DNA of 64,000 nucleotides from a virus: the IMG/VR virus record IMGVR_UViG_3300006155_000004. The stretch is one strand, 5' to 3'. This document shows positions 4,157 through 61,164 of the stretch, in pieces. The position numbers and the translations under genes are program-made. Below the pieces are notes generated by a model, which made no database searches, had not been told where the DNA came from, and saw only the letters and a list, made by a program, of their open reading frames with translations. Numbering within the stretch: position 1 is the first letter of the stretch; the number at the start of each line of letters is the position of its first letter.

Positions 4157-4174
4157 AAGAAAGGAGAAATGAAT

Positions 4175-39854: not shown

Positions 39855-39883
39855 TTGAGTTTTGAGCCTTTTTATGGTAAAAT
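39855..39883 (+). promoter_or_regulatory. promoter TTGAGT-17-TAAAAT with TG extension, upstream of int
   Basis: -35 at 39855-39860; TGGTAAAAT at 39875-39883. Confidence 0.45.
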
Positions 39884-39933
39884 ATAAACTATATCAAGGC
39901 TCTTTTCCTAAACAAAAGAAAGGAGATTTGTCA

Positions 39934-41124
39934 ATGGGAAAAGATTTGAAAGGAAAGGAGTTGGGTGTTGGGTTAATCCAACGCAAAGACGGGCTGTATC
40001 AGGCGAGATATTCTAACAGATGGGGAAAGAGAAAAACTATCTATGGGAAGAATCTGCGAGAACTGAGAAAAGAGCTTGCGGAGGCTATTGCGGGAAACGA
40101 GAACTTTGCAAGCACAAAATACGAAATAACGCTTGATAAGTGGTTTGACAGATGGATGGAGGTTTATAAAGAGAAAAGTATAAGACCAAACACCAAGAGA
40201 GAATATACGCACATATACAAGAAAAATATTTCTCCGTACATAGGAGAAAGAAACATCAATTCTCTTGTCAAATCCGATATTCAAAGAATTATTGATAGGG
40301 CAAGTGACGACAGTTATGCTTATGAGCGGCAGAATAAAATCAAAGTGATTCTTCGAGATATGCTGCAGAGGGCAGTTGAAGATAATCTTGTTGTCAACAA
40401 TCCCGTGAGCGGTATAAAACTTAGGGCAGATAAGGAAATCAAGGCAAAATCATTGACAGTTGAAGAACAATCATTATTCTTTGATTATTGCCGCAACACA
40501 TTTTATGATAACCTTTTCAACGTGGCGGTTAATACGGGATTACGGCCGGGCGAGCTATTTGCCTTGCAATTTTCGGACATAGATCTTGATAATGGGCTTA
40601 TAGACGTAAACAAAACGCTTGTTTACCAAAAATATCTTGATGATGAATGTAAAACGTTTCATGTCGAACCGCCAAAAACTAAGAAAAGCTACAGAAAAGT
40701 GCCAATCAACAGCGTTTGCAGAAAGTTTTTAGAAAGTCAATTAGAATTGAAATCAGTCGTATCGCAGAAAAGACCAAAACAACAGAATGACTACGTATTT
40801 GTGACAAAGTTTAATACGCCTCTTAACTCTGTTATTTATTCGGATGCGATAAAAGCCGTAATTCGCCAGATAAACCTAGCAAGGCCGTTTGATAATCAGT
40901 TTGAGGTATTCAGCGGACATACATTCCGGCACACATTTGCTACTAGGTGCTTCGAGAGTGGGGTGGACGCAAAAGTGGTGCAAAGCTATCTTGGTCATGC
41001 AAGCCTTAAAATGACAATGGATTTATATACACATGTCACAGAGGAAAAATCAATGAAAGACATAGAAAAAATTGTTCCGGGGATCGAAAACAAGGTCGTG
41101 AACATAAGGAGAAAAATGGCTTAA
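39934..41124 (+). CDS. int: tyrosine recombinase / phage integrase
   Basis: LRPGELFAL.., HTFRHTFAT, LGHASLKMTMDLYTHV; ATG with an AAAGGAG RBS preferred over the track start. Confidence 0.9.
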   Translation: MGKDLKGKELGVGLIQRKDGLYQARYSNRWGKRKTIYGKNLRELRKELAEAIAGNENFASTKYEITLDKWFDRWMEVYKEKSIRPNTKREYTHIYKKNISPYIGERNINSLVKSDIQRIIDRASDDSYAYERQNKIKVILRDMLQRAVEDNLVVNNPVSGIKLRADKEIKAKSLTVEEQSLFFDYCRNTFYDNLFNVAVNTGLRPGELFALQFSDIDLDNGLIDVNKTLVYQKYLDDECKTFHVEPPKTKKSYRKVPINSVCRKFLESQLELKSVVSQKRPKQQNDYVFVTKFNTPLNSVIYSDAIKAVIRQINLARPFDNQFEVFSGHTFRHTFATRCFESGVDAKVVQSYLGHASLKMTMDLYTHVTEEKSMKDIEKIVPGIENKVVNIRRKMA

Positions 41125-41154
41125 ATGGTGTAGCGATGGTGTAGTGATGGTGTA
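41125..41154 (+). repeat. three ATGGTGTA repeats with 11-bp phasing (candidate integrase arm-type sites)
   Basis: Copies at 41125, 41136 and 41147, directly after the int stop. Confidence 0.6.
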
Positions 41155-41345
41155 TTCTTAAAAATAAATGTTATAAAATCAATGTTTTTAATAATTTTTG
41201 TAACATAAATGGTATAATTATTATGTATACCAGAGTACTCCGTATGAGCTGTAGGAATATTTATGAAATAGCGGTTTTATGCGGGTTTTCAATGCGTTTT
41301 CATTTTTACGAAACCTCACATAATTTAACAATTATTCACGGAAAA

Positions 41346-41406
41346 ACGGTGTATTAATGGTGTAAATGGTGTAGTAAATGGTGCAGTAAATTTTAAAAAT
41401 GGTGTA
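41346..41406 (+). repeat. five further A(T/C)GGTG(T/C)A repeats in the same orientation
   Basis: Copies at 41346, 41357, 41366, 41378 and 41399. Confidence 0.6.
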
Positions 41407-41437: not shown

Positions 41438-41466
41438 TTGACCATTGTCAGTATTAGACATATAAT
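41438..41466 (+). promoter_or_regulatory. promoter TTGACC-17-TATAAT
   Basis: Hexamers at 41438-41443 and 41461-41466, upstream of ORF 41494. Confidence 0.55.
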
Positions 41467-41493: not shown

Positions 41494-41925
41494 ATGTCTG
41501 ATAATATTGATTTAGAAACAGATTCAGAAAATACTGTTGTCGAAGAAGAAGCCCAGGGAATCGCGATGGAGCTGCTGCACGATTTGAAGGAGCATAACCG
41601 GAGGATGGACGATCATAACAAGAGGCTCGTTTCCGCTCTTAAAATGTCTGCGATATCTTTCGGAGCGACTGTAATCATTGTGGTCGGGATGTTTTTCTTT
41701 GGCATGCTGTTTTTCTTAAATCAGTACGAGTTTGAGAACTATTCACAGGATGGTGGCGGTTACAATAATATTAACACTGGGGAACAGGGGGATTTGTACA
41801 ACGGGGCAGAAATATCAGAGGATGAAAAAGAAGAACGGCAAAGCGAAAGGAATGATTCACAAGAAGCCGTCCAATGGCCGGAACAAGAATCGGAGCCGGA
41901 GAACAAAGAAAAGGATAATAATTAA
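41494..41925 (+). CDS. single-pass membrane protein with acidic termini
   Basis: TM ISFGATVIIVVGMFFFGMLFFL; ATG with a GGGGG RBS. Confidence 0.6.
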   Translation: MSDNIDLETDSENTVVEEEAQGIAMELLHDLKEHNRRMDDHNKRLVSALKMSAISFGATVIIVVGMFFFGMLFFLNQYEFENYSQDGGGYNNINTGEQGDLYNGAEISEDEKEERQSERNDSQEAVQWPEQESEPENKEKDNN

Positions 41926-41984: not shown

Positions 41985-42203
41985 GTGGTATCTACGTTGA
42001 AAGTGCCCGATTTTACATTGCCAGAATTGGAATACATAAAGAAAAACGGAAATCTAACGCCGAGAGAGGCGGAGGTACTTGAATTGAGAAATCAAGAATA
42101 CCCTCCGACCATAGAGAGCATTGCTGAAACGTGGGGGTGCAGTCCGTCTACAGTCAGTAAAACCATAGGAAGTCTAAAGAAAAAGATAATAAGGCTTTTG
42201 TAA
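41985..42203 (+). CDS. small sigma-70 region-4 / LuxR-type HTH protein
   Basis: LTPREAEVLELRNQ..TIESIAETWGCSPSTVSKTIGSLKKKI. Confidence 0.5.
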   Translation: MVSTLKVPDFTLPELEYIKKNGNLTPREAEVLELRNQEYPPTIESIAETWGCSPSTVSKTIGSLKKKIIRLL

Positions 42204-42295: not shown

Positions 42296-42502
42296 ATGAA
42301 TTTAAGTTTTTTATCAAAAGAACAGTCGGAAGAATATAAAAACAAGATGAACTTGACGGAAGATGAAGATCAGATTTTTGATATGTTAACAAAGAATTAT
42401 TCTGTTGTCAAGATTTCAGATATTATGCAAATGTCAACTCGGACGGTCGACAGAAGAATTAAAAATATCAAATCGAAAATGAAAAATCTAAATCTGGTTT
42501 AA
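42296..42502 (+). CDS. small sigma-70 region-4 / LuxR-type HTH protein
   Basis: LTEDEDQIFDML..VVKISDIMQMSTRTVDRRIKNIKSKM; AGGAGG RBS. Confidence 0.5.
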   Translation: MNLSFLSKEQSEEYKNKMNLTEDEDQIFDMLTKNYSVVKISDIMQMSTRTVDRRIKNIKSKMKNLNLV

Positions 42503-42678
42503 TGGCCGGATTTTTCTATGCAGTCTATTAGGTAGCTATTCAAACTATTAAATCCTTTTTCTTTTGCTAATTTCCCCCATTCCTCTTTTTTCCCCTTTTT
42601 TGCCATTATCGTTATCCTATCATAATTTTTCTCATTCCAACGGTTTTTAACTTCCGATGATGTTTTTGTTTTTACCAT
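42499..42678 (-). CDS. Arc/MetJ-type ribbon-helix-helix protein
   Basis: NRWNEKNYDRITIMAKKGKKEEWGKLAKEKGFSLNSYLIDCI pattern; GGAGG RBS. Confidence 0.55.
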   Translation of the reverse strand: MVKTKTSSEVKNRWNEKNYDRITIMAKKGKKEEWGKLAKEKGFNSLNSYLIDCIEKSGH

Positions 42679-42778
42679 GACGAAACCTCCATTTTTAATA
42701 AACAGTATAATACTTTTGCAAGTATGTTGCAATACTTTATAAAGTATGCTATAATGAAAATAAATGGAGGTGTTGAAA

Positions 42779-43753
42779 ATGGCAGATTTAAATTGCTTGT
42801 GGGGAATATACTACGATATGATAAAAAGATGTTATGATAAAAATTATTTTTTATACAAAAGTTATGGAGAAATCGGAGTAACCGTTTGCCCTGAATGGTT
42901 AAATAATAGAAGTAGTTTTAACGAATGGGCAAATTTGAAAAATTACAAAAAGGGAATGCGCTTAAAATTGCGTGAAAAAGAAGTTGGATATTTTCCGAGT
43001 AATTGCTATTTTAGTAACAAAAGAGAAAGAAAGTTAAAAGAAAATAAACAAAAAGAAGGCAGTAAAACATACAGAAGTGATAAATTCAAAAGTATTTTAG
43101 GCGTTGAAAAATATATAGATAGTCCTATATACATATCTTATTATGCAATGATTGATAGATGTTGTAATCCGAAGAACAAGTCCTATAAATGGTATGGCGC
43201 AAAAGGCATAAAAGTATGTGATGAATGGACAGAAGATATAATCGGATTTGAAAGATTTTCTGTTTGGTCTTTAGGGAATGGGTGGAGAAAAGGTCTTACA
43301 ATAGACAGAATAAATGCGGATAAAGATTATTGCCCAGAAAATTGTAGGTGGATAACTATACAAGAACAGCAGATAAACAAATCAAATTCTTTAAATTTTA
43401 TGTATAGTGGTCAGATTAGAAATTTATCGGAAATAGCGAAAGAAAATAATTTGTGTTATTCAAATTTGTATAGGAAAATAATGTATGATAATTATTCTGT
43501 TGAAGATGCGATAAATTATTTAAAAAGAAGAAGAAAAGGAAAGAAAAATAGCATGTACCATTCAAAACAAGTTGCGCAAATAGATAGTAATGGAGAAATA
43601 GCAAAAGTTTTTCCAAGCGCAAAATCAGCGGCTGATTCCTACGGAAAATCTTCTGGAAGCTTAACAAAGGCTTGTAGAAACGGGACAACATGGTTGGGGA
43701 AAAGATGGAAATATATAACCGAAGATGAATATGACGAATTTTTAAAAAAGTAG
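42779..43753 (+). CDS. HNH_3/AP2-like DNA-binding protein (two tandem modules, first degenerate) with a NUMOD1-like C-terminus
   Basis: RCCNPKNKSYKWYGAKGIKVCDEW, LTIDRINADKDYCPENCRW; C-terminal VAQIDSNGEIAKVFPSAKSAADSYG. Confidence 0.65.
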   Translation: MADLNCLWGIYYDMIKRCYDKNYFLYKSYGEIGVTVCPEWLNNRSSFNEWANLKNYKKGMRLKLREKEVGYFPSNCYFSNKRERKLKENKQKEGSKTYRSDKFKSILGVEKYIDSPIYISYYAMIDRCCNPKNKSYKWYGAKGIKVCDEWTEDIIGFERFSVWSLGNGWRKGLTIDRINADKDYCPENCRWITIQEQQINKSNSLNFMYSGQIRNLSEIAKENNLCYSNLYRKIMYDNYSVEDAINYLKRRRKGKKNSMYHSKQVAQIDSNGEIAKVFPSAKSAADSYGKSSGSLTKACRNGTTWLGKRWKYITEDEYDEFLKK

Positions 43754-43826
43754 CTTTTAAAAGAGGCGTAAACTTGTCGTTTTCGTCTCTTTTTTATATG
43801 GTAAAACAATTACAGGAGATGATTTT

Positions 43827-44057
43827 ATGTTCAATGATGACCTTTTGTGCAAAATCTTCGCGCATGAGGAAATGCAAAAAATTCCTATAGGGACACAAGC
43901 AACAGCTGTCCATGTGTTTGAAGAAATCTTAGAAGATATATTGGAGGAAAATCCATATGAGCAATTATCCGGCTTACTCGTACCAGCAACCCCAGATGAT
44001 GGGGTATCAGCAGAATTTCAATCAGACTATGCAGATGCAGAACCCCTATATGGATAG
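43827..44057 (+). CDS. hypothetical acidic protein; its 3' 100 nt overlaps the next ORF out of frame
   Basis: ORF track; the overlap suggests a wrong end or a frame problem. Confidence 0.35.
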   Translation: MFNDDLLCKIFAHEEMQKIPIGTQATAVHVFEEILEDILEENPYEQLSGLLVPATPDDGVSAEFQSDYADAEPLYG

Positions 44058-44481
44058 GTCTGTGCAGATGCAGCAATATCAGCAGGGGCAGCAGGTGCTA
44101 CCAACACAAATGCAGGGAGCATATCAGCAGCCCGGACTTATCGGGAAAATGGTGAATGACGTGTCTATGGTTTCCCCAAACGATGTACCTATGGATGGAA
44201 ACATTGCCATTTTCCCAAAGGGAGACATGTCTGAAATCTACTGTAAGCAGTGGAAGCAGGACGGGACCATTCAGACAGTCGTTTATAAGCCTGTTTTAGA
44301 ACAGAATCAGACAGAGGCTACAAATACACCGCAGATGGATTTTAGCGCCTTAAATGAGGACGTTAGGGCGCTTAGGGAAGATATAAAAGGTGTTCGGGAT
44401 ATGATTGAAAAATCTATGGCGGTTCCGGCAACTAAAACATCCCAGAGAGGGAAGAAAGCGGAGGTAAGTGCTGATGAATAG
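43957..44481 (+). CDS. Gln/Met-rich low-complexity protein with a globular C-terminal half
   Basis: GGAGG RBS; YSYQQPQMMGYQQNFNQTMQMQNPY.. followed by a non-repetitive C-terminal half. Confidence 0.6.
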   Translation: MSNYPAYSYQQPQMMGYQQNFNQTMQMQNPYMDRSVQMQQYQQGQQVLPTQMQGAYQQPGLIGKMVNDVSMVSPNDVPMDGNIAIFPKGDMSEIYCKQWKQDGTIQTVVYKPVLEQNQTEATNTPQMDFSALNEDVRALREDIKGVRDMIEKSMAVPATKTSQRGKKAEVSADE

Positions 44482-44752
44482 ACAAATGCAGATACAGCAG
44501 ATGATGGGAAATCCACAGTTTCAACAGCAGTACCAACAGAGATTAAGAGTGATGAACCCAGCACAGATTTTAGACCAGATAGCAAACAACCCCAAAATGA
44601 TGGAAAATCCAATGGTGAAAAACATCATGGAAATGCGGAATAACCACGACACCGAGGGGCTGACCGGAATGGCAGAAAATATGTTCCGCGAAAACGGGAG
44701 AGATTATGGAGAGTTTGAAAGCGGATTGAAACAGCAGTTAGGGTTTAAATGA
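44474..44752 (+). CDS. Gln/Met/Asn-rich small protein
   Basis: MNRQMQIQQMMGNPQFQQQYQQ.. Confidence 0.5.
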   Translation: MNRQMQIQQMMGNPQFQQQYQQRLRVMNPAQILDQIANNPKMMENPMVKNIMEMRNNHDTEGLTGMAENMFRENGRDYGEFESGLKQQLGFK

Positions 44753-44909
44753 ACGGACCCAAGCAGTGTGTTTTAATGTATAAAATTCAGAAAATCCTTG
44801 AATTTATAAGGTTTTTCTGGCGGACCACACAAAGTACATATTAGGGTTTGGCGCGCAGATAAAAACCGGTTCCCTATTTGTAAATACACTTCAAATAGGA
44901 GGCACTAAT

Positions 44910-45842
44910 ATGTTTAATTCAAACAATTCAACACCATTTACGATGCCGGTACAACCTGCCGGATATGGAAACGGCGGTGGCTTTGGTGGCTGGGGAGATG
45001 ACTGGATTGCCCTGATTGTACTGGCTATGGTATTCGGCTATGGAAACTTCGGTTTCGGCGGCATGGGCGGCATGGGTGGCATGGGAATGTTCTGGCCGTT
45101 TATGATGGGCGGTTTTGGAGGATTCGGCGGTAACGGCTGCGGATGCGGCGGAACGAATGCCATCGATGCATCCATCCAGCGCGGATTTGATACCCAGTCC
45201 ATAATCGGAAAGTTAGACGGTATCAACAACGGCTTATGTGACGGCTTCTATGCAGTCAACACGTCCATTCTGAACTCACAAAGCGGCATCCAGAACAGTT
45301 TGTGTCAGGGCTTTAACGGCGTGAACACAAATATCATGCAGGGCAACTTTGGTTTGCAACAGGCTATCAACGGTGCTTCTGTGGCTAATATGCAGGGACA
45401 GAACGCTTTGCAGAGCCAGTTAGCAAGCTGCTGCTGCGAAACGCAGAGAGCAATTGACGGTGTAAACTATAACATGGCGACCAATACCTGTGCTATTACC
45501 AATCAGATGAACAACAACACCAGAGACATTATCGAGAGCAACAATGCTGGTACAAGAGCAATCCTTGACTACCTGTGCCAGAAAGAAAATGCAGACCTTC
45601 GGGCAGAAAACCAGAGCCTTAGACTGGAGAAGAGCCAGACGGCACAGAACGCATTTATTGCAGCAAACCAGAGCGCACAGACAGCCGAACTCATTAGGCG
45701 ATTGGGGGCTGATTGCCCGGTTAATGCCGTGGTGGTTCAGCCGAACACGCCTGTTACTTTCCCGACAAACTGCTGCGGTGGTGTAAACTACGCAGGATAT
45801 GGCAATAACGGCGGGTGCGGCTGCAATAGTGGCTGCTGCTAA
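44910..45842 (+). CDS. Gly/Cys/Asn/Gln-rich membrane-anchored protein (YjcZ-like Gly-rich N-terminus; GC-rich Cys termini)
   Basis: GYGNGGGFGGWGDDWIALIVLAMVFGYGNFGFGGMGG..GCGCGG; C-terminal NCCGGVNYAGYGNNGGCGCNSGCC; AGGAGG RBS. Confidence 0.7.
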   Translation: MFNSNNSTPFTMPVQPAGYGNGGGFGGWGDDWIALIVLAMVFGYGNFGFGGMGGMGGMGMFWPFMMGGFGGFGGNGCGCGGTNAIDASIQRGFDTQSIIGKLDGINNGLCDGFYAVNTSILNSQSGIQNSLCQGFNGVNTNIMQGNFGLQQAINGASVANMQGQNALQSQLASCCCETQRAIDGVNYNMATNTCAITNQMNNNTRDIIESNNAGTRAILDYLCQKENADLRAENQSLRLEKSQTAQNAFIAANQSAQTAELIRRLGADCPVNAVVVQPNTPVTFPTNCCGGVNYAGYGNNGGCGCNSGCC

Positions 45843-45934
45843 TGGATGCGAAAGAAACTGATACTCTCGCCATTCTTGACGAGATTATCAGAAATCAGGA
45901 AGAAATACTAAGAAAACTCGCCAACATAAGTTAG
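45842..45934 (+). CDS. 30-aa helical peptide
   Basis: TAATG overlap with the upstream stop. Confidence 0.3.
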   Translation: MDAKETDTLAILDEIIRNQEEILRKLANIS

Positions 45935-45977
45935 GCTGATTATTCCCCACAACAAAGGTGGGTTGATTATAAGCTAA

Positions 45978-46007
45978 GGGGCGAGATGTAACAGTCTTGT
46001 CCCTTTT
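45978..46007 (+). terminator. rho-independent terminator
   Basis: 9-bp stem (2 G-U pairs), 8-nt loop, TTTT. Confidence 0.55.
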
Positions 46008-46029
46008 GCGTTGTACATTGACAACTGAA

Positions 46030-46051
46030 TATGGCTAACAGTTTGTATGCT
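46030..46051. repeat. left copy of a perfect 22-bp inverted repeat TATGGCTAACAGTTTGTATGCT
   Basis: Exact reverse complement of 46706-46727. Confidence 0.9.
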
Positions 46052-46057
46052 TTATGC

Positions 46058-46085
46058 TTGCAATTTTCTCTGTTTGTGATATAAT
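46058..46085 (+). promoter_or_regulatory. promoter TTGCAA-16-TATAAT (TGA extension) inside the IR-bounded cassette
   Basis: -35 at 46058-46063; -10 at 46080-46085. Confidence 0.5.
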
Positions 46086-46119
46086 AAATGTGACACATAA
46101 ATTCATAGGAGTGTTGCGA

Positions 46120-46689
46120 ATGGCAGGTAGACCAAAGAAAACAGACGACGAAAAACGGACAAACTTTATAAATGTCCGCTTGAATAATTCGGAGAAAGAA
46201 AAACTTGAATTTCTATCGGAAAAGCAAGGAATTTCAAAACATCAAGTTATCAGAAACGGGATTGAATTGCAGTATAAGGAGGAAAAAATGAATAGGAAAA
46301 TTAAGTTTAGGGCGTGGTGTGAAACATATACTGGAACAAGCGGCATAAAGAAGTTTATGGAAAACTGTTTTAAGCAAATCAAATTAGAATCTACAAGCAT
46401 CAATCCGCAAGGTAGTTTTATAGGAAAACAAGGAACTTGGAGCGGATTGCACGAAAGCGTATTTATGCAATACATAGGGATTGAAGATAAAAACAAAAAG
46501 GAAATATATGAGAGCGATGTAGTAAAAATAGATGGAAAACGAGAACTTTTTACCGTTGTTTGGGTGTGTGATACCGCAAGGTTTGGATTGCAAAGCAAGG
46601 GAGAACTTCTTTATTTTGAGTTGGGAATTGGAAGCAGGATTGAAGTTGTAGGAAATAAATACGAAAATCCAGAACTTTTGCAAAACTAA
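46120..46689 (+). CDS. in-frame fusion of an RHH (CopG-like) domain and a YopX domain; internal RBS+ATG at 46288
   Basis: MAGRPKK..FINVRLNNSEKEKLEFL RHH; AAGGAGG-N5-ATG, then MNRKIKFRAW..YIGIEDKNKKEIYESDVV..GNKYENPELL. Confidence 0.7.
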   Translation: MAGRPKKTDDEKRTNFINVRLNNSEKEKLEFLSEKQGISKHQVIRNGIELQYKEEKMNRKIKFRAWCETYTGTSGIKKFMENCFKQIKLESTSINPQGSFIGKQGTWSGLHESVFMQYIGIEDKNKKEIYESDVVKIDGKRELFTVVWVCDTARFGLQSKGELLYFELGIGSRIEVVGNKYENPELLQN

Positions 46690-46705
46690 ATCATTTATCA
46701 AATAG

Positions 46706-46727
46706 AGCATACAAACTGTTAGCCATA
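46706..46727. repeat. right copy of the 22-bp inverted repeat; also the 5' arm of a local hairpin with 46731-46742
   Basis: AGCATACAAACTGTTAGCCATA; followed by GGCTAGCAGTTT and a T-run. Confidence 0.9.
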
Positions 46728-46771
46728 GGAGGCTAGCAGTTTTTTATTTGGAGAAATGGAGGTTAAAATAT

Positions 46772-47185
46772 ATGGCATGTAAAAATGTATGCAGGCTGTG
46801 CGACAGACTGATTTTGAGCCAGTCAATTACGTTTACTGGCGGCAATCTGGTTATCAATCTGCCCGCCGGAAGTTACAACAATAACTGCAAATACTGCATT
46901 GTCTTAGCACAGGCAATCCCGACAACTACGACAATCGGCGCACCTGTGGTATTCACAATCGGAACAGGAACACAGCTTTATCCTCTTGCGAACAGATGTT
47001 GCAGACCTGTTACGGCGTGTGGCGTGCGTACCCGCACAAAATATTCTGTATGCGTGGAGACGACGGAGACAGGGGCGACATTCAAAATGCTTGGAAATCC
47101 GGCGTGTCAGCCGAACAACAACCTGCGGGCAGTTAATGGTACTGCACCCGTGTCAGAACCGGCAACACCAGAGGCAGGAGCATAG
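46772..47185 (+). CDS. Cys-rich beta-type protein of unknown family
   Basis: MACKNVCRLCDR.., CKYC, CC, C..C; GGAGG RBS 7 nt upstream. Confidence 0.6.
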   Translation: MACKNVCRLCDRLILSQSITFTGGNLVINLPAGSYNNNCKYCIVLAQAIPTTTTIGAPVVFTIGTGTQLYPLANRCCRPVTACGVRTRTKYSVCVETTETGATFKMLGNPACQPNNNLRAVNGTAPVSEPATPEAGA

Positions 47186-47201
47186 AGAGGAGGTAAAAAG
47201 T

Positions 47202-48050
47202 ATGCATATCAAGAGAATCCATGAAATGGAAGAAAAGTTGACAGAAATCGCCCTTTGCGAGATTAACAAGGGCATTGAATGTGTCAATACCGCCGAAATG
47301 GGCGCAGTTATCGACATGATAAAAGATTTGGCTTGTGCCGAAAAAGAGGCAAGAGAAGCCAAAGAAATGGAAAAAGAAGAGGAAGGTGAAAAGAAAGAAA
47401 ACGAATACTTTCTGAAAAAGCTGAAAGAAGAATACGGAGAAGAAGAGGGAGAAAAGAGGTTTTACAGCGGACAGCCTAGAAGCCGCACGTCTGGTCGGTT
47501 TATGAGGCGCGGAGACGGGCGTAGGAGAGGATATGAGGAGCCACCTTATTATCACACCATGCCAGATTACAGAATGGATTTGGCAGATTACAAAGGAAAG
47601 ACAGCCGAGGAACTTAGGGACTTAGATAGAGCTTCAGGGCGATTATATTTTTCTGAACCTATGGGCGTCAATATGAGCGGTGGAAATTCTTCTGTCAGTA
47701 ACACAAGCTCGGAAAATAGCGGCGGAAATACGAGGTCATATACAGAGGGTTTTGAGGATGGACAGACCAGGGGATATTCCGAAGGATATGAACGAGGAAG
47801 AAATGACGGAAGAAACTCGCAAAGCAGAGATAGGCGTGAGGGGCGTTCAGGGCAGTCCAGACGCGGATATATGGAAACTAAAGAAGCACGCAAAGAAAAT
47901 ACACCAGAAAACAAGCAGTACCGAATGAAAGAATTGGAAACATACGCAAAGGAATTGACCGAAGACGTAGTTGACATGATTGCAGACGCTACGCCGGAGG
48001 AGCGTTCTCTTATGAAGCAGAAAATGCAGGTGCTTTTGCAAAAACTGTAA
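47202..48050 (+). CDS. protein with helical ends and an E/K-rich then R/G/S/Y-rich low-complexity core
   Basis: GAGAGGAGG RBS; EKEEEGEKKENEY.., RRGDGRRRGYEEPPYY.., GYSEGYERGRNDGRNSQSRDRREGRSG. Confidence 0.6.
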   Translation: MHIKRIHEMEEKLTEIALCEINKGIECVNTAEMGAVIDMIKDLACAEKEAREAKEMEKEEEGEKKENEYFLKKLKEEYGEEEGEKRFYSGQPRSRTSGRFMRRGDGRRRGYEEPPYYHTMPDYRMDLADYKGKTAEELRDLDRASGRLYFSEPMGVNMSGGNSSVSNTSSENSGGNTRSYTEGFEDGQTRGYSEGYERGRNDGRNSQSRDRREGRSGQSRRGYMETKEARKENTPENKQYRMKELETYAKELTEDVVDMIADATPEERSLMKQKMQVLLQKL

Positions 48051-48059
48051 AATAAAGCC

Positions 48060-48102
48060 TTGACTTATGCCTAGATGTATGTTAAATTATATCTAGGCAT
48101 AA
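48060..48102 (+). promoter_or_regulatory. promoter with a perfect 12-bp inverted-repeat operator TTATGCCTAGAT / ATCTAGGCATAA
   Basis: -35 TTGACT at 48060-48065; IR arms at 48065-48076 and 48091-48102. Confidence 0.6.
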
Positions 48103-48118
48103 AAGCGAGGTGGTGAAA

Positions 48119-48304
48119 ATGTCGCCTAGAACTGGCAGACCTATTATCGGGAGCGAGCCGAAAAATCAACAAATTGCATTGAGGGTAACAGCTACAACAA
48201 AGAGGAAATTTCAAGAGTGTTCTGAAATTACCGGAAAAACTCAAACAAATTTGCTTGAAGAAATGGTTGACGACTTGCACGATAGGTTGACGGAAAAAGA
48301 ATAG
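48119..48304 (+). CDS. RHH (CopG-like) regulator
   Basis: MSPRTGRPIIG..QIALRVTATTKRKFQE. Confidence 0.65.
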   Translation: MSPRTGRPIIGSEPKNQQIALRVTATTKRKFQECSEITGKTQTNLLEEMVDDLHDRLTEKE

Positions 48305-48639
48305 AGCGTTACCGCCCTGAACAAGTGATAAACGCTCTACACCGAGGTTTCCCTCTGATAAATACAATCATATCACAGCGGAGACCTCTTTTCAAGATAT
48401 TTTTACAAAAGATGAACCCACGCTCATGGGAGAAAGAGGTACATAATAAGAAGAAAAATAATGATAATGCTTTACGCGCTCTCTTCAATCATTGATGACA
48501 TTGCATATTTCGTTGTCGGAAATTGCGAGGATTTTCAATGCGAGATTAAAACTCATTGGAGAGAACATTCTATCGGTTAGTATGTTTTCTGCTGATTTGG
48601 GGAGTGGCTACCGCTCCCTTTTGTGATATGGAGGTATTT

Positions 48640-49620
48640 ATGGAAAAGCCAACGCTTAATTGGAGATGTAAAGATATATCTGGGTATAGGAAAGGAACGA
48701 TAACTGTAAAAAATCCAACCGATAGCAGAAGTAAGAACGGATCTATAATATGGGAATGCGAGTGTGAGTGCGGAAACAAGGTTTATTTAACAAAACAACA
48801 AATAGAGAAAAATCCTTATTGTGGAAAACGCAATAAAACATATAATTTTATAGATTTTAAAGACAAACAAATAGGTGTTCTTCATGTTATCGAATATACA
48901 GGAGATTCAAAATGGTTATGCGAATGTGAGTGTGGAAATCGGAAAATTGTTCATAGGTCTGTTTTGCGAAAAGGAGCAACATATGCTTGCTCATGCAATC
49001 ACAAACTTCATAAATCCGATTGCAATACAACGCATGGAAAGAGCAATACAAGGCTTTATCATGTTTGGTGCGGAATGAAAAACAGATGTTACAATAAAAA
49101 TTTAGATGAATATCACAGATATGGCGGCAGAGGAATAACAATCTGCCCTGAATGGCTGGGGAAGAACGGCTTTCAGAATTTTTGTAAATGGGCATATGCG
49201 AATGGGTACGACGAAAATGCAAAGCGTGGAGATTGTACAATAGACAGAATTAACAATGATGGAAATTATGAACCGTCAAATTGCCGGTGGGCTACATATA
49301 TTGAACAAGCCAATAATAGGAGTGACAATCATTTAATAGAGATAAGTGGGGTTGTTAAAGGAATTAAGGATTGGTGCGATGAATACGGAATAAAAATCGG
49401 AACGTATAAAACGAGAGTTCGCAGAGGAACGGACGATGTTTCTGCTATTACTACGCCAATAAGAAAATTCAGCAAAGATTTAACCGAAAAAGAGAGAAAA
49501 GAAAGAAAACAAAAGAGACTTGAAAGAATTAAAAAATGGCAGGAAGAAAACAAAGATAAAGTTAAAGAATATCAAAGAAAAAGCGAGGAAAAGAAAAAAT
49601 CAGAAAAGAAAGCCGATTAG
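48640..49620 (+). CDS. HNH_3/AP2-like DNA-binding protein with two N-terminal zinc-ribbon modules and a Lys/Glu-rich tail
   Basis: WECECECGN.. x2; RCYNKNLDEYHRYGGRGITICPEW; CTIDRINNDGNYEPSNCRW. Confidence 0.65.
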   Translation: MEKPTLNWRCKDISGYRKGTITVKNPTDSRSKNGSIIWECECECGNKVYLTKQQIEKNPYCGKRNKTYNFIDFKDKQIGVLHVIEYTGDSKWLCECECGNRKIVHRSVLRKGATYACSCNHKLHKSDCNTTHGKSNTRLYHVWCGMKNRCYNKNLDEYHRYGGRGITICPEWLGKNGFQNFCKWAYANGYDENAKRGDCTIDRINNDGNYEPSNCRWATYIEQANNRSDNHLIEISGVVKGIKDWCDEYGIKIGTYKTRVRRGTDDVSAITTPIRKFSKDLTEKERKERKQKRLERIKKWQEENKDKVKEYQRKSEEKKKSEKKAD

Positions 49621-49639
49621 GGGCAGAAATGCCCCTTTT
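49620..49639 (+). terminator. rho-independent terminator GGGGCA-GAAA-TGCCCC-TTTT
   Basis: 6-bp stem, GAAA tetraloop, T-run. Confidence 0.6.
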
Positions 49640-49658
49640 CTTGAAAGAGGGTGTATCT

Positions 49659-49982
49659 ATGAATTTTATTGTGAATAATCATATATGGAAGCTGCAATTC
49701 GCAAAAGGCGGCAGCGAAAATCTGCGTAGATCGGACGGCAGTTATACTTTTGGTGCGACGGACAATTCTGTCAAAACAGTTTTTCTCATGCAGAATATGT
49801 CGGATTACATGACGGATAAGGTATTAGTTCACGAATTGTCGCACGTCCATGCGCTAGAGTATGACTATTCAATTCCGCTATGGGTAGAAGAAATCGTTTG
49901 TGATTTCCTAAGTCTGTATGGCAGGAGCGTAGTCTATTTGGCGGATAGTATAATGCCAAAGATTTTAAGGAGGATAGCATGA
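49659..49982 (+). CDS. small zinc-metallopeptidase-like protein (HExxH)
   Basis: GATDNSVKTVFL...VLVHELSHVH. Confidence 0.55.
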   Translation: MNFIVNNHIWKLQFAKGGSENLRRSDGSYTFGATDNSVKTVFLMQNMSDYMTDKVLVHELSHVHALEYDYSIPLWVEEIVCDFLSLYGRSVVYLADSIMPKILRRIA

Positions 49983-56480: not shown

Positions 56481-56566
56481 TAGAGGGAAACTAAAACCCG
56501 GAGGTCATGACGCTATCATGGCTTTCTGGGTTATTTTTATTTTTAGGCAGAATGGAGGTGTGGAAA

Positions 56567-57115
56567 GTGGCAGATAAAGAGTATAAGCGTAAAGGATATG
56601 CGCCGGATTTGTCAGAAACAGATAACATAATGGCGGTTACTGATATTCTTTTAACGACTGTTAAATCTGGCAGACCTGCGGAATACCCAGAAGATGGGCA
56701 TGGGCTTGAAAGATTCAAGAAAACGACGGTTGAATACTTGGAGCATGTGCAGGAAATAAACAGTGGTGACGATGTGTCAAAGAAAGTCATTCCGGATATT
56801 GAATCATGGGCTTGCTATTTAGGCATTACAAGGGCTACATTGGCCACATATGCAAGGACAAGGGGAGAGGATTGGAAGCAGTTTATAGCGGTTGTCAAGA
56901 ATGGCATAGCGGCGGTTAAGAAAGACGCTGCATTCCATCAGCAGATAGCCCCGGTTATGGCCATGTTTGACTTTACAAACAATCACGACTACGTGAATAC
57001 AAATGAGTTTAAGTTAAATGCAAGTGTTACAGAAGATGCAAAGAAAGTATTAACCGCTAAAGAACTTCCTAAATTGGGAGATGTGGATAGTGCAGAAGTA
57101 AATGATAATATATAA
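56567..57115 (+). CDS. terS: terminase small subunit
   Basis: SGRPAEYPE.., IPDIESWACYLGITRATLATYAR, MAMFDFTNNHDY; GGAGGTG RBS before GTG 56567. Confidence 0.7.
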   Translation: MADKEYKRKGYAPDLSETDNIMAVTDILLTTVKSGRPAEYPEDGHGLERFKKTTVEYLEHVQEINSGDDVSKKVIPDIESWACYLGITRATLATYARTRGEDWKQFIAVVKNGIAAVKKDAAFHQQIAPVMAMFDFTNNHDYVNTNEFKLNASVTEDAKKVLTAKELPKLGDVDSAEVNDNI

Positions 57116-59637: not shown

Positions 59638-59641
59638 TTTT

Positions 59642-59713
59642 AGGGCTATCGCCAAACGGTAAGGCACAGCGCTTTGACTGCTGTATTTCCGGGTTCGAGT
59701 CCTGGTAGCCCTG
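59642..59713 (+). tRNA. tRNA-Gln (anticodon UUG)
   Basis: Acceptor AGGGCTA/TAGCCCT, anticodon loop CTTTGAC, T-arm CCGGG-TTCGAGT-CCTGG; no encoded CCA. Confidence 0.85.
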
Positions 59714-59792
59714 TTGCCGCGACTTGCGCCGGAGTTGCGCGGGAATAAAGTTAATGGGTCGCGGTATTAAATCTGAAAGCGAGGGAGTTTTG

Positions 59793-59942
59793 ATGATTAT
59801 TGCCATCTTTGGGATAATTGTTTTTCAACTCGTGGAACGGATTGCCATAGTCGAGAAATCCTCAACAGAGGTTTTGAGGAAATGCATCTGTATGTTAGGG
59901 TTTTCATACAATGCAATTCCGGCAAGGCATGAAGTCCCGTGA
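59793..59942 (+). CDS. possible small membrane protein (49 aa)
   Basis: GAGGGAG RBS; hydrophobic MIIAIFGIIVFQLV. Confidence 0.3.
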   Translation: MIIAIFGIIVFQLVERIAIVEKSSTEVLRKCICMLGFSYNAIPARHEVP

Positions 59943-60118
59943 AAGCCATATCTGCAAGAAGATAATCCGCAAAATGCTGAAAAGCCAGTATTGATTATTA
60001 AAAATTATAATTGAGATAATGAACCAACAAAACTATCAAACATTGCGGATATGGCGGATTTAAGAAAATATATAAACTTATCGGCGGCGGCTTGTTGGTC
60101 TCGTTGCCGCCGGTTTAT

Positions 60119-60191
60119 GCGGGCATAGCTCAATCGGAAGAGCACTGGACTCCAAAACCAGAAGTCGTAGGTTCGACCCCCTCTGCCCGTG
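60119..60191 (+). tRNA. tRNA-Trp-like (anticodon CCA) with A31:A39 and two T-stem mismatches
   Basis: Acceptor GCGGGCA/TGCCCGT (G1:U72), D-arm GCTC..GAGC, loop CTCCAAA; T-stem GTAGG/CCCTC pairs only 3 of 5. Confidence 0.6.
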
Positions 60192-60244
60192 CTTAGTATC
60201 AAATATTTGTATTATTCGATATCTCCTTTTAACCCCGTAGTGGA

Positions 60245-60601
60245 ATGCTGTTAAGAGCCATCGCACGGCTTGCGGGGATTCGGTGGAGCGACCACCATTA
60301 TAAAAACAATCCGTGTAAAAATGTCACAAGTCTTGCAGGCAGGATGTCTAATGCCGAGGGGAAACTTGGAAAGATAATTTTCGGTTCATTTGTTGGAGAT
60401 CCAGGAGGGAAAAACTATATTGAACTGCCAATAAAGAGTGCGGACGTTTTTAGCAACAATATACTAGCGATCAATGGTGATTTTGTTGTGTATGGCGGCT
60501 TCGTTATTGGTTTCAACTTCTACAAAGAAAATGTCGTGTGTATATTATCTGCTGCGAGAAGCGGGGCCATAAGGATCAATTATATATATTTCCATGTTTA
60601 G
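60245..60601 (+). CDS. hypothetical beta-rich protein (start uncertain; ATG 60344 possible)
   Basis: ORF track. Confidence 0.4.
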   Translation: MLLRAIARLAGIRWSDHHYKNNPCKNVTSLAGRMSNAEGKLGKIIFGSFVGDPGGKNYIELPIKSADVFSNNILAINGDFVVYGGFVIGFNFYKENVVCILSAARSGAIRINYIYFHV

Positions 60602-60672
60602 GCGCGTCAGTTGAAAGATAAGTGAAATGGTTTGTGTGGCGGGGAGGAACCCGCAAAAGGGAGGATATGGGA

Positions 60673-60855: not shown

Positions 60856-60963
60856 AATCCATTTTAAGCCATTTTAACCCCACGCCCTATAATTTCATCA
60901 CCGAAACACAAAAGAGGGCGTTTTGGGGCAAATAGGAGCGTTAGAGAGGTATCAAAACAATAA

Positions 60964-61046: not shown

Positions 61047-61164
61047 TTTTGATAATACTTGCCATTATCAAATCAAGCACAGCATGAGCCTTTAGGGTAT
61101 AGTGCGGTAGTCTGATAAACTATGTGGGGAATGGGAGGCAAGTTTCCAAACCCCATGCTTGTAT

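Follow-up and report, generated by a model that had tools for sequence, protein, structure and literature searches.

The i-spanin Rz combines an N-terminal transmembrane domain with coiled coils and intermolecular disulfides, and the cluster motif of radical-SAM proteins has the spacing CX3CX2C. On the spore side, the C-terminal domain of the exosporium tip protein F-BclA is available as PDB 9H38 (PMC12357932). How does the locus described here compare? In a window of 64,000 nucleotides from a virus (IMG/VR record IMGVR_UViG_3300006155_000004), positions 43827–48050 hold seven co-oriented plus-strand genes for the proteins A76, B174, C94, D310, E30, F137 and G282. The initial annotation could name no family for them, and indeed none matches a characterised one: searches of Pfam, NCBIfam, PADLOC and PDB sequences gave no named family for any of the seven (in PADLOC, no exclusion or defence family), and the PHROGs to which the tested members belong are all of unknown function. 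Since no confident match to an ordinary phage scaffold, holin or tail fibre emerged either, the finding is not explained away. We conclude that these genes for unusual Gln-, Gly- and Cys-rich proteins do exist and constitute a conserved, self-regulated, autonomous accessory cassette of thousands of tailed phages of gut anaerobes. As to its product, we tentatively favour a membrane-anchored stalk-and-knob assembly that acts at the cytoplasmic membrane in infected cells or lysogens, a reading that is possible rather than probable.

Gene content and conservation

The open reading frames listed initially are all present on the plus strand at the starts then given, with strong, GGAGG-like Shine–Dalgarno sites, and their unusual compositions are borne out against the 62 other plus-strand ORFs of the window. 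The block is also richer in GC, as had been said (GC 0.469 and GC3 0.498, against 0.394 and 0.405), and its codon choice is unlike that of the rest of the phage, CAG making up 81% of Gln codons as against 50%. In the window the cassette adjoins the integrase gene, about 43 kb from the endolysin gene (494–1285).

The cluster is far beyond chance: some 20 independent loci, whose proteins are 20–90% identical, share its gene order. The order sig-A-B-C-D-E-F-G-(p117) is kept in loci L005, L008, L009 and L018–L020, and B-C-D-(E)-F-G in Ceridwen, Dulem 33, 35 and 36, bajarodcaudo 5, XP41-N3 and L010–L016. Within the cassette D is always accompanied by B and C; E, F, G and a small protease are its usual further partners, and a membrane protein and a GerE/sigma-r4-type HTH protein are often found upstream. 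In Dulem 35 the cassette, with its own p152 and sig1 pair, sits between head genes, and it therefore moves as a unit. Earlier it had been taken to be borne by a mobile element with its own regulators, which fits: the carrier is a phage and HTH genes lie alongside. The cassette proteins are nearly phage-only, with three weak matches in 72,556 plasmids.

The first gene, A76 (43827..44057), encodes a small acidic protein without a family match; its last 101 nt are shared, in a different frame, with the beginning of B. In L005, L008, L009, L018 and L020 the protein is conserved at 61–77% identity and the genes overlap in a similar way. B174 (43957..44481) has a Q/M/Y-rich N-terminus and a conserved domain of about 60 residues; part of it aligns to a C-terminal coiled-coil-like helix of its relatives (15-member alignment A9). 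Its Gln and Met contents are 14.9% and 8.6%, against a background of 3.3% and 2.8%. Relatives of B belong to phrog_21718 (Ceridwen protein, 1.1e-29; B174 itself, 2.3e-5), and a PDB sequence search returned none. C94 (44474..44752; 92 residues if read from the ATG at 44474) is small and rich in Gln (14.9%), Met (12.8%) and Asn (11.7%). All full cassettes keep C in its position, and the Ceridwen counterpart falls in phrog_22984.

E30 (45842..45934), which was absent from the initial annotation, begins with an ATG that overlaps the stop of D (TAATG) and is translationally coupled to D. It is conserved at 93–100% identity in close relatives, was independently called as a 30-aa gene in L004, L005, L024 and L026, and is the C-terminal remnant of a protein of 63–83 residues, with a hydrophobic N-terminus and a coiled coil, found at the same position in other relatives. 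The last protein, G282 (47202..48050; E 16%, R 10.3%), is rich in R/G/S/Y, intrinsically disordered and helical at its ends. The layout proposed for it, helical-looking conserved ends around E/K-rich and R/G/S/Y-rich tracts, is seen in a 13-member alignment (A10), in which the low-complexity tracts vary in length. Its Dulem 35 counterpart belongs to phrog_28802 (2.4e-56); the other matches are sub-threshold and of low complexity.

Protein D, a proposed stalk, and protein F, a proposed knob

The hallmark of the cassette is D310 (44910..45842; phrog_16490, 6.5e-59; G 16.5%, N 12.6%, C 5.2%), a single-pass membrane protein with a long stalk of 11-residue repeats and a Pro/Cys-rich tail. An acidic N-tail, a Gly-flanked hydrophobic helix (about 31–45) and a Gly/Met-rich linker are followed by about 12 eleven-residue N/Q/G-rich repeats (98–225) with CCC at 174–176, a coiled-coil segment (225–266) and a tail ending in GCGCNSGCC. 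The Gly-rich membrane anchor, the N/Q-rich middle with its cysteines and the GCGC/CC end thus stand as first annotated; the label 'YjcZ-like' for the anchor was dropped, no Pfam or NCBIfam match supporting it. Relatives of D number at least 7989 in 90%-identity clusters and form 1123 clusters at 50% identity; the best 150 of the 1123 are all of 91–340 residues and share one architecture with no fused domains. CCC is near-invariant (112 of 115 full-length representatives). At 11/3 the repeat power is 86, as against 8.9 ± 8.8 for shuffled sequences, a value reached by none of 2000 shuffles. AlphaFold2 renders D, at low confidence (pLDDT 45), as a transmembrane helix and one long helix; since the repeat region is Gly-rich, it could instead be a beta-solenoid. 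Weak charge statistics (average net charge of −2.1 for the N-flank and −0.7 for the C-flank) suggest that the N-tail lies outside and the stalk in the cytoplasm. Neither D nor any of its partners has a signal peptide.

What might the stalk carry? F137 (46772..47185) is an eight-stranded, Cys-bearing beta-sandwich, here termed type i, with a flexible Pro/Thr/Ala-rich C-tail. The Cys motifs first noticed in it are confirmed as C3-x3-C7-x2-C10, C39-x2-C42 and C75C76 (7.3% Cys), and C7, C10 and C42 are invariant. An AlphaFold2 model built from a 150-sequence alignment has a mean pLDDT of 77.6 (core about 87). Foldseek against BFVD matched it to phage proteins of tail-fibre and collagen-like type, in their C-terminal parts (E of 1e-4 to 1e-3, TM 0.45–0.55); in the PDB nothing was better than E = 0.36, the best, weak match being a phage baseplate/tail-fibre chain, and no C1q-like match appeared. 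The model thus resembles phage fibre-tip knobs, not capsid proteins. L020, although closely related (its G and D are 61% and 64% identical to those of the window), has a non-homologous, type-ii protein in place of F; the type-ii profile weakly matches the F-BclA domain 9H38 (E = 1.1e-3). No correlation was seen between the type of F and the type of D tail, a point against contact between the two proteins.

These observations agree with the earlier expectation of a self-assembling, cross-linkable structure, with which composition and Cys conservation are compatible. The other early proposal, structural proteins of an unrecognised particle, is not upheld: the cassette lacks replication, packaging and capsid-like genes, and F resembles fibre tips. 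In the stalk-and-knob assembly that we favour, the short acidic N-tail of the inserted D would face outwards and its stalk inwards, into the cytoplasm, and F would dock on D through the conserved cysteines of both, which might form a metal/thiol centre under the reducing conditions of the cell or, once released, disulfides. Assembly or scaffolding would be the task of B, C, E and G, and the HTH pair and the protease would switch the cassette on. The product would stand on the cytoplasmic membrane, the one structure common to all hosts, whether Gram-positive, Gram-negative or archaeal, with the knob as a fast-evolving specificity element. Of its conceivable roles we would place first exclusion, a guarding of the membrane against competing phages, although no exclusion or defence family of PADLOC matches; then control or completion of release, and third an adhesive function after lysis.

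Could the cysteines themselves be the point? The motifs of F (CX3CX2C, CXXC) and D (CCC, GCGC) might bind Fe–S clusters or other metals, in which case the complex would serve phages of strict anaerobes specifically, sensing oxygen or redox state or acting as a sink. In favour, every host identified is a strictly anaerobic inhabitant of animal guts, few residues are better conserved than the cysteines, disulfides are unlikely in proteins predicted to be cytoplasmic, and CX3CX2C is the radical-SAM spacing. That spacing is, however, absent from type-ii and crAss-type F proteins, archaeal D has no Cys tail, no cassette protein is homologous to any Fe–S or metal-binding family, and the stalk and the Q-rich partners are left unexplained. 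We regard a redox centre as very unlikely.

Genomic positions and hosts

If the cassette moves as a unit, where does it settle? In Ceridwen, XP41-N3, bajarodcaudo 5 and Dulem 33 it lies directly 3′ of holin/endolysin genes, and in the crAss-like cr116_1 shortly after holin and L,D-carboxypeptidase genes. In vir215 its position is between tail genes and the integrase, and a 156-aa protein two genes downstream has several hydrophobic segments, judged by eye from its sequence. Such neighbours would suit a lysis accessory, in which D, by virtue of its Gly-rich hydrophobic segment, its extended coiled coil, the cysteines available for covalent oligomerisation and the Pro-rich tail, would be a spanin-like or fusion-protein-like remodeller that ruptures or vesiculates the cytoplasmic membrane late in infection, the remaining proteins timing or assisting it. 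The architecture of D parallels that of Rz, crAss annotators label D-like proteins 'spike protein/glycoprotein', and the longer E proteins are laid out, by eye, like BhlA-type holin-like peptides. Nevertheless we consider this role unlikely. The hosts are mostly monoderm, in which a spanin is needless; no lipobox ORF occurs in or beside the cassette; E-type proteins have no Pfam holin or BhlA match; and canonical holin and endolysin are separately present. In the window the endolysin is some 43 kb away and the cassette sits beside the integrase with its own regulators; in Dulem 36 the lysis genes are about 16.6 kb from the cassette (9703 versus 26305). Nor would a swappable knob have a role in such a model. 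Adjacency to holin/endolysin or tail genes, as seen in many phages, suits a lysis or a virion role just as well as it suits the stalk-and-knob assembly that we favour.

The cassette follows a receptor-binding protein gene in Dulem 36 and tail genes elsewhere. Another reading is of accessory fibres with D as their shaft and F as the knob at the far end, assembled onto particles in the cytoplasm to decorate head or tail or to adhere to mucus or to the surface of the host. The likeness of F to tail-fibre and collagen-like proteins, and to the baseplate chain, points this way, as do the crAss label 'outer capsid protein/viral fiber' for D-like proteins, the missing signal peptides, a swapping of knobs like the exchange of receptor-binding tips, and restriction to gut viromes, which would suit an environment-facing adhesin. 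Against this, the same cassette occurs in very different phages (BFVD labels Myo-, Sipho- and Podoviridae, and crAss-like), situated at many different sites in their genomes and accompanied by regulators of its own, unlike lattice-specific decoration proteins; the hydrophobic helix of D is of membrane type; low-complexity proteins such as B, C and G are untypical of virions; and the complete virion inventory of crAss001 holds no D-like protein, nor is a crAss001 homologue among the matches of D. A virion fibre therefore seems to us distinctly doubtful.

What of the spore? It had been proposed that the module remodels the spore or cell surface, and Cys/Gln cross-linkable proteins with a BclA-like knob might indeed be made in the mother cell of sporulating Clostridia, with GerE-like factors in control, and added to the coat or exosporium. 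Most carriers are Clostridia, the regulators include GerE-family HTH proteins, signal peptides are absent as in coat and ENA proteins, the cassette of L026 abuts a gerA-family gene, and the type-ii F profile matches the F-BclA domain (PMC12357932). A stand-alone Spo0A DNA-binding domain (7479–7844; Spo0A_C, 2.7e-19) is likewise real, but it is encoded not by a neighbouring phage, as first thought, but by the same all-plus-strand genome as the cassette. Butyrivibrio, on the other hand, is described as a non-spore-forming genus, and a full or partial cassette is present in the Butyrivibrio fibrisolvens phage Ceridwen, in a Christensenellaceae MAG and in the apparently integrase-less phage Dulem 36. 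Homologues of D extend from phages of Butyrivibrio and C. perfringens to phages of Bacteroides (including one of Bacteroides uniformis), crAss-like phages and viruses assigned to Methanomassiliicoccales (hhalign 99.6%, E = 1.8e-23), so a spore-specific role does not generalise. These distant proteins retain the TM, CCC, PxPAY and C-terminal GCGC features, archaeal D being without the Cys tail. For the stalk-and-knob reading it is a difficulty that in the archaeal-virus loci D has no partners, and that its neighbours in Bacteroides and crAss-like phages are analogous only in size and character, hhalign with two-sequence profiles showing no homology to B or F. No cassette protein matches the Pfam models CotY/Z, ExsF, DUF3992, DUF4183 or BclA_C, and the window's own F, of type i, has no C1q-like match in the PDB. 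The initial annotation had counted a spread mainly in non-sporulating hosts against the spore; the distribution of D and of the cassette goes half of that way. We conclude that the cassette is not specifically a spore-coat module, and spore-surface remodelling is highly improbable.

Regulators, insertions and the small protease

Upstream lies a pair of genes headed by p152 (41494..41925), which encodes a single-pass membrane protein with acidic ends and no family match, beside a consensus-like sigma-70 promoter (TTGACC-17-TATAAT, 41438–41466). Its homologues directly precede those of sig1 in Dulem virus 35 (L002), L009 and L023. Two sigma-region-4-like genes had been reported here, and both do encode stand-alone HTH proteins: sig1 (41985..42203, 72 aa) matches Sigma70_r4 (1.6e-5, 24.8 bits, cut-off 24.1) and also GerE (7.9e-5), whereas sig2 (42296..42502, 68 aa) is of the GerE/LuxR type (GerE, 9.2e-8, 32 bits, cut-off 23.5). 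The former accompanies the cassette in L002, L009, L013, L020 and L023; homologues of the latter (87–90% identity) precede it in L005, L007, L008, L018 and L019, and in L024 and L025 GerE-annotated genes occupy its position. A protein of L012, its sequence judged by eye, has hydrophobic segments at the N-terminus and an HTH-like end at the C-terminus.

A conserved non-coding element 5′ of D (44834..44875, plus strand), a candidate operator, promoter or 5′ leader, has the pattern …GTACATATT…GGTT…GCGC.CA…AAA…GGTT.C…, with columns invariant in eight loci and diverging flanks. RNAalifold pairs its AACATATT with the start-codon region AATATGTT, with no covariation. Judged by eye, the element departs from the −10 consensus of sigma-K and from that of sigma-E, a further point against mother-cell expression.

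Two genes are insertions and not functional parts. An HNH homing-endonuclease-like gene (42764..43753, plus strand; phrog_3377, 4.7e-61), followed by a terminator-like hairpin (43759–43793), lies between regulators and cassette and is missing from the same place in L005. A mobile insertion (46030..46727, plus strand) that interrupts the cassette carries an RHH–YopX fusion gene (46120–46689; YopX, 2.9e-16; phrog_876 repressor, 3.5e-11) within a 26-nt inverted repeat (46030–46055 and 46702–46727, 96% complementary); it is missing in L005, L006 and L026, and the syntenic locus of Lachnospiraceae bacterium A2 is without the gene. Downstream, RHH64 (48110..48304, plus strand; phrog_876, 2e-7) encodes a small ribbon–helix–helix-type repressor next to an operator-like palindrome (48065–48102; 15-nt arms, 93% complementary) that overlaps a promoter-like site (48060–48088). 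Of the control by RHH genes with palindromic operators first described, then, genes and palindrome are real, but one gene is an insertion and the other has no conserved link with the cassette.

RHH64 and a second HNH gene (48637–49620) separate G from p117 (49629..49982, plus strand), a small HExxH metallopeptidase-like protein (motif VHELSHV) with weak matches to DUF6782, Peptidase_M78 and phrog_13742 (peptidase, 7e-4). The gene is usually found 3′ of G: homologues follow the cassette in L005, L009, L017–L020 and L022, a p117-like protein was recognised by inspection at the same place in L021, and HExxH ('PolyVal metallopeptidase') genes hold the same relative position in the Bacteroides and crAss-like loci.

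Setting and unity of the cassette

What kind of genome surrounds the cassette at 43827-48050? The window is the non-structural portion of a large phage genome, with nearly all of its genes on the + strand. In the listed gene order an endolysin gene (494-1285) is followed by genes for anti-repressors, an SbcC-like protein, RecT, a helicase, a DnaD-like protein and a methyltransferase, and then by a Tn916-type integrase gene (39862-41124). Among the early genes is one for a stand-alone C-terminal DNA-binding domain protein of the Spo0A family (7479-7844; Pfam Spo0A_C, 2.7e-19, 69.5 bits), after which comes the gene of a DUF6618 protein (7841-8125). Farther on lie a region that weakly matches the DNA-packaging gp3 family, scoring under the curated cut-off (56507-57115), and a cluster of five tRNA genes (59641-61484; Gln-TTG, Trp-CCA, Tyr-GTA, Cys-GCA and Ile-TAT). 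Just 3' of the integrase gene, direct repeats of AATGGTGTAAATGGTGTAG-type units extend over 41115-41393; they may be the arm-type sites of attP.

Downstream of the integrase gene, and likewise on the + strand, come p152, which encodes a membrane protein and has a near-consensus sigma-70 promoter (41438-41466), the small helix-turn-helix genes sig1 and sig2, an HNH gene, and then A76, B174, C94, D310 and E30, each named by a letter and its length in residues. E30 is followed by the fusion gene RHH-YopX, F137, G282, a small RHH gene, a second HNH gene and p117. The product of p117 has a HELSH motif, matches Peptidase_M78 (0.018) and DUF6782 (0.0078) below threshold, and matches the peptidase family phrog_13742 at 7e-4. 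Sig1 passes the Pfam gathering threshold for Sigma70_r4 (24.8 against 24.1 bits), and sig2 is of GerE/LuxR type (Pfam GerE, 32.0 against 23.5 bits); at 68-72 residues both are too short for sigma factors.

The initial annotation was right about the gene starts that it named, each of which has a GGAGG-type ribosome-binding site, and the open reading frames on its list stand, but it overlooked E30, whose ATG overlaps the stop codon of D. The odd compositions are as it described them, in strong contrast to the other 62 open reading frames of the window, and the cassette is indeed GC-richer (GC 0.469 versus 0.394; GC3 0.498 versus 0.405). Glutamine is encoded by CAG in 81% of cases within the cassette, against 50% elsewhere in the window. 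The phage tRNA-Gln(UUG) reads CAA, which the cassette avoids; the tRNAs are thus not tuned to the cassette, and the idea that they serve it was ruled out. A76 and B174, which are read in different frames, share 101 nt (43957-44057), and an overlap of 56-70 nt is kept in loci L008, L009 and L020. Between sig2 and the HNH gene is one of the few minus-strand reading frames here (42499-42732; 59-77 residues, Lys-rich). It matches no family, and there is a promoter-like site on the opposite strand at 42727-42755.

Is the block inherited as a unit? We followed its gene order by tblastn and inspection of open reading frames in 33 fetched loci. The order (p152)-sig-A-B-C-D-E-F-G-(p117) recurs in Lachnospiraceae bacterium A2, several MAGs and IMG/VR contigs. 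The core B-C-D-(E)-F-G is found in Butyrivibrio phage Ceridwen, Clostridium perfringens phage XP41-N3, Dulem viruses 33, 35 and 36, bajarodcaudo virus 5, and MAGs of Oscillospiraceae, Ruminococcus and ‘Bacilli’. A Christensenellaceae MAG (L012) has B, C and D only, its locus ending after D, and a Clostridia MAG (L010) has only an F-like gene. Protein identities between cassettes fall as low as about 20-40%; a megablast search of the 12-kb region against phages gave no match, and a single-sequence genome scan returned only 9 genome loci. In Dulem 35 the cassette, together with its own p152 and sig1, is situated between head genes, from which it follows that the cassette moves as a unit. We conclude that the cassette is real, mobile and self-contained, with its own helix-turn-helix regulators and a small protease.

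Its location differs between phages. It follows the holin/endolysin genes in Ceridwen, XP41-N3 and bajarodcaudo virus 5, lies between endolysin and integrase in Dulem 33, and stands directly 3' of the receptor-binding protein gene in Dulem 36, where the 50 kb examined contain no integrase gene. In cr116_1 the lysis genes precede it and the scaffold and MCP genes follow it; in vir215 the D homologue lies between tail genes and integrase; in the window and its relatives the cassette adjoins the integrase gene, far from lysis and structural genes. In L026 it is the first block after host-like genes, which include one of the gerA family. These sites are classic accessory (‘moron’) territory of Firmicutes phages. 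Like morons and lysogenic-conversion cassettes, which occupy the stretch from lysis genes to attP-int, the cassette sits at the lysin-integrase junction or beside the integrase, has its own promoter-like sites, regulators and terminators, deviates in base composition and inserts as a unit at different places. Unlike them, it comprises seven to ten genes rather than one or two, its products look structural and are neither toxins nor enzymes, and it also occurs in virulent-looking phages (crAss-like phages, Dulem 36). Because the cassette is present in apparently virulent phages, its function must also pay off in lytic growth.

Protein D and its distribution

Searches of Pfam, NCBIfam, PADLOC and PHROGs with all members, and with their counterparts at other loci, placed none in a named family. 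The PHROGs matched by members or by counterparts elsewhere are without assigned function: 21718 (B), 22984 (C), 16490 (D), 20016 (type-ii F), 28802 (G) and 3754 (an associated Cys-His protein). D310 matches phrog_16490 across its repeat and coiled-coil core (6.5e-59, 200.9 bits), and the vir215 homologue carries that annotation in its own record. The initial likening of the membrane anchor of D to YjcZ finds no support: D310 has no Pfam or NCBIfam match at E <= 1 apart from a spurious one to the MreC coiled coil.

Alignments give D an acidic N-terminal tail, a short hydrophobic helix between Gly-rich runs and a repeat region rich in Asn, Gln and Gly; after these come CCC, which is invariant, a segment of coiled-coil type (…L.L..SQ..QN…) and finally CPxPAY with an end rich in Cys (GCGC). 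The repeat unit measures 11 residues: the power of the hydrophobicity spectrum at 11/3 is 86, against 8.9 ± 8.8 for shuffled sequences, and 0 of 2000 shuffles reach 86. There is also a harmonic at about 5.4. AlphaFold2 models one transmembrane helix and one 170-residue helix, at a pLDDT of only 45; given the high Gly content, a beta-solenoid is a possible alternative to the helix. The relatives of D number at least 7989 in 90%-identity clusters; at 50% identity an exhaustive HMMER search yields 1123 clusters, 515 of them at E <= 1e-10. Among the best 150 of these 1123 the lengths run from 91 to 340 residues, the shorter ones being fragments; the core is always in the same place and there are no fusions. 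Of 115 full-length representatives, 112 have CCC and 76 a hydrophobic window. None has a signal peptide. The mean charge of the flanks of the hydrophobic segment (-2.1 on the N side versus -0.7 on the C side) weakly favours an N-out/C-in topology. D is thus the membrane-type hallmark protein of the cassette, with a long repeat stalk and conserved cysteines, accompanied by low-complexity partners and by an exchangeable knob, F. That the cassette houses a redox or metal centre is a reading to which we give little weight.

How far does D extend beyond the Firmicutes? Using tblastn with the XP41-N3 and cr116_1 proteins as queries, we found homologues in six isolated C. perfringens phages, in Bacteroides uniformis phage C3_41T2LP, in many crAss-like phages, where they are labelled ‘spike protein/glycoprotein’ or ‘outer capsid protein/viral fiber’, and in two viruses whose records give Methanomassiliicoccales as host. 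The proteins of this wider set retain the Gly-flanked transmembrane segment and CCC, and the bacterial ones also PxPAY and a C-terminal GCGC/CNC; hhalign aligns them with the Firmicutes set over 231 columns (99.6% probability, E = 1.8e-23). Behind D, the Bacteroides and crAss-like loci encode a beta-rich protein that contains Cys, then one that combines a beta-domain with a coiled coil and, further on, a tiny R/D/Y-rich protein and an HExxH (‘PolyVal’) metallopeptidase. The series is of the same kind as the cassette; when the crAss neighbours were compared by hhalign with B and F, using profiles of 2 sequences only, no homology was detected. In the archaeal-virus loci D alone of the cassette is present. 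D is nearly absent from plasmids, and the sources that we identified are all animal guts.

The distribution of the cassette is independent of host envelope type. A multi-gene cassette whose architecture is kept across Gram-positive, Gram-negative and possibly archaeal hosts must act on something common to them, be it the cytoplasmic membrane, the virion or their surroundings in the gut. D constitutes a large gut-virome family without assigned function, in phages of three very different host groups, and solving the cassette would take a great many ‘hypothetical proteins’ out of the annotation of gut phages.

The known systems that come closest are parallels, and we count the cassette among none of them. 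With two-component spanins (lambda Rz/Rz1) and class I viral fusion subunits D would have in common an N-terminal anchor in the membrane, or a hydrophobic segment rich in Gly, and a long non-globular stalk of coiled-coil type, both helices being modelled at low confidence; it also has conserved cysteines suited to covalent oligomers and a Pro-rich tail, and is frequently encoded beside holin and endolysin. As in SU-TM pairs, there is a separate and variable partner of receptor type, F with its CXXC. No sequence or fold match links D to either. The differences from spanins are several: no + frame of 43700-48100 contains a lipobox-bearing reading frame and hence a lipoprotein partner; most hosts are monoderm; D exceeds Rz two- to threefold in size and has 11-residue N/Q/G repeats; and it comes with Q-rich and disordered proteins, its own helix-turn-helix regulators and a protease. 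Neither D, E30 nor the full-length E of L013 matches a holin family (BhlA or other Pfam and PHROG families). A spanin-like or fusogen-like lysis accessory, lacking the lipoprotein partner that defines spanins and any holin match, is on balance rather unlikely.

The exchangeable protein F and possible roles

If D is the stalk, what does F contribute? The AlphaFold2 model of F137, built on a 150-sequence alignment, is an eight-strand all-beta domain (mean pLDDT 77.6, about 87 in the core). Foldseek found nothing significant in the PDB (best E = 0.36), so that the idea of type-i F137 as a jelly-roll of ENA/DUF3992 or C1q type is unsupported; the hit of highest probability was a baseplate/tail-fibre chain of Pa193 (E = 0.38, probability 0.66). 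In BFVD its own homologues came first, and then C-terminal parts of other phage proteins, annotated as tail fibre, hyaluronidase fibre, or collagen-repeat or trimeric-adhesin stalk (E 1e-4 to 1e-3, TM 0.45-0.55, 9-18% identity). Many cassettes carry in the F slot a protein that cannot be aligned with this one, type ii (hhalign probability of type i versus ii, 0.3%). The window phage and its close relative L020 (G 61% and D 64% identical) differ at this place, with type i in the window and type ii in L020; the F slot thus accommodates knob-like modules that can be swapped, which is what one would expect of a specificity element. F and the receptor-binding protein of the same phage (Dulem 36) show no similarity.

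Might F belong to a virion fibre? Tail-fibre and receptor-binding knobs may resemble F in fold, to judge from the BFVD matches of its model, and F is, like them, exchanged between close relatives. Unlike them, F is a separate gene product of 125-150 residues and not the C-terminus of a fibre, and in the window it stands alone beside the integrase, outside any tail operon and far from structural genes. The crAss001 virion atlas contains no D-like component. We regard virion fibres as an unlikely explanation.

PDB sequence and profile searches found nothing for D, type-i F, B, G or the Cys-His protein; the single match in the set was that of the type-ii F profile, a protein that the window lacks, to 9H38 (E = 1.1e-3, 74 columns). 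This entry is the C-terminal domain of F-BclA, the tip fibrillum of the Bacillus thuringiensis F-ENA (PMC12357932). The C1q-like domains of BclA and F-BclA and the ENA tip fibrillae (PMC12357932) are, like F as modelled, small Cys-bearing beta-sandwiches without a signal peptide, and Cys-rich N-terminal connectors couple knob to fibre. Unlike BclA, F is stand-alone and has no collagen-like stalk, and DUF3992 or DUF4183 subunits are missing; for the type-i F of the window we detect no resemblance to type ii or C1q folds, and the cassette also occurs with non-sporulating hosts. Circumstantially, and for this phage only, the GerE-type regulators, the Spo0A_C gene and the BclA-like knobs of relatives point to remodelling of the spore surface. 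It cannot be the general function of the family, since Butyrivibrio, Bacteroides, crAss-like and archaeal-virus records carry D. Neither A-G nor the type-ii F proteins match CotY/Z, ExsF, BclA_C, DUF3992 or DUF4183 (Pfam, E <= 1). The spore-coat or exosporium reading of the initial annotation is thereby weakened on two counts, Pfam membership and a distribution not restricted to endospore formers, and we now hold it to be quite improbable.

What, then, might D and F do together? The reading that we prefer, tentatively and from their anatomy, is that they would form a stalk-and-knob complex on the cytoplasmic membrane. Its most plausible role would be exclusion, with control of release second and adhesion after lysis third. 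The PADLOC defence and exclusion profiles gave nothing meaningful, only helix-turn-helix-type matches for sig1 and a weak AbiTi match for C94 (0.035).

A far more speculative idea, and a long shot, is a phage-made two-part ‘spike’ in which a swappable receptor-type knob, F with its CXXC, would be thiol-linked to a fusion-protein-like stalk, D with its Gly-rich hydrophobic segment, long repeat coil and CCC. The pair would be analogous to the SU-TM pairs of enveloped viruses or to spanins, and would be independent of the host envelope. After lysis the spike would remain on pieces of membrane or vesicles, perhaps accompanied by virions or phage DNA; oxidation would harden it, and it would direct this material to new cells or gut surfaces or fuse it with them, serving gut transmission. 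If true, it would be a transmission device common to gut viruses of Firmicutes, Bacteroidota and methanogens. The remaining probability belongs to an explanation not yet imagined.

A literature search of limited extent found no description of this cassette, which on that ground we place outside the known kinds of system; it may yet prove to be a variant of one of them. Papers on the C. perfringens carrier phages, on prophages and endospore appendages, and on lysogenic conversion in Lachnospiraceae yielded no functional or virion-proteome data for these proteins. The cassette is directly testable in isolated carriers, namely Ceridwen, the six C. perfringens phages and C3_41T2LP, and solving it could reveal a new mechanism of exclusion, release or transmission.

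Control elements, inserted genes and neighbours

Upstream of D a non-coding element (44834-44875) is invariant in 8 of 8 aligned loci. Within it AACATATT is complementary to the start region of D, AATATGTT, and there is a GCGC-centred palindrome. The element could be a candidate operator for sig1 and sig2, or a translational control element. An RNA structure at this place gains no support: the start-codon pairing lacks covariation and the folding energy is -3.9 kcal/mol. In L012 a protein encoded upstream of the cassette (6072-6707) has, by eye, hydrophobic N-terminal segments and a C-terminus resembling a sigma-r4-type helix-turn-helix, which suggests membrane-tethered control of the cassette.

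In many cassettes the place held by the HExxH protein p117 in the window lineage is occupied by the Cys-His protein of phrog_3754 (L001 4713-5090; L013 7280-7636; L015 1956-2351; L016 about 6806-7177). It has about 125 residues, an invariant Cys and His in papain-like order and, downstream of these, a D.WD motif that is mostly conserved; neither the PDB nor Pfam contains a relative. The notion that it is a transglutaminase cross-linking the Q-rich B and C has no homology support, and its gene is absent from the window.

Judged from sequence, the RHH and HNH genes are passengers of one conserved cassette. RHH-YopX is flanked by a 26-nt inverted repeat, 96% complementary (46030-46055 and 46702-46727), and is missing from otherwise syntenic cassettes such as the A2 locus; it has the look of a small mobile gene cassette that ends in inverted repeats. 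Between cassettes the HNH genes vary too. Three paralogues resembling homing-endonuclease genes (phrog_3377/374) lie at 8362-9123, 42764-43753 and 48637-49620, and the latter two, which flank the cassette, have 81-nt repeats in common. Related HNH genes are found inside the cassettes of other phages and even, in cr116_1, in the MCP gene. In vir215 (Caudoviricetes sp., L033), a virus assigned to Methanomassiliicoccales, a reverse transcriptase gene (3152-4186), which probably belongs to a diversity-generating retroelement, stands between a tail protein gene and that of the D homologue.
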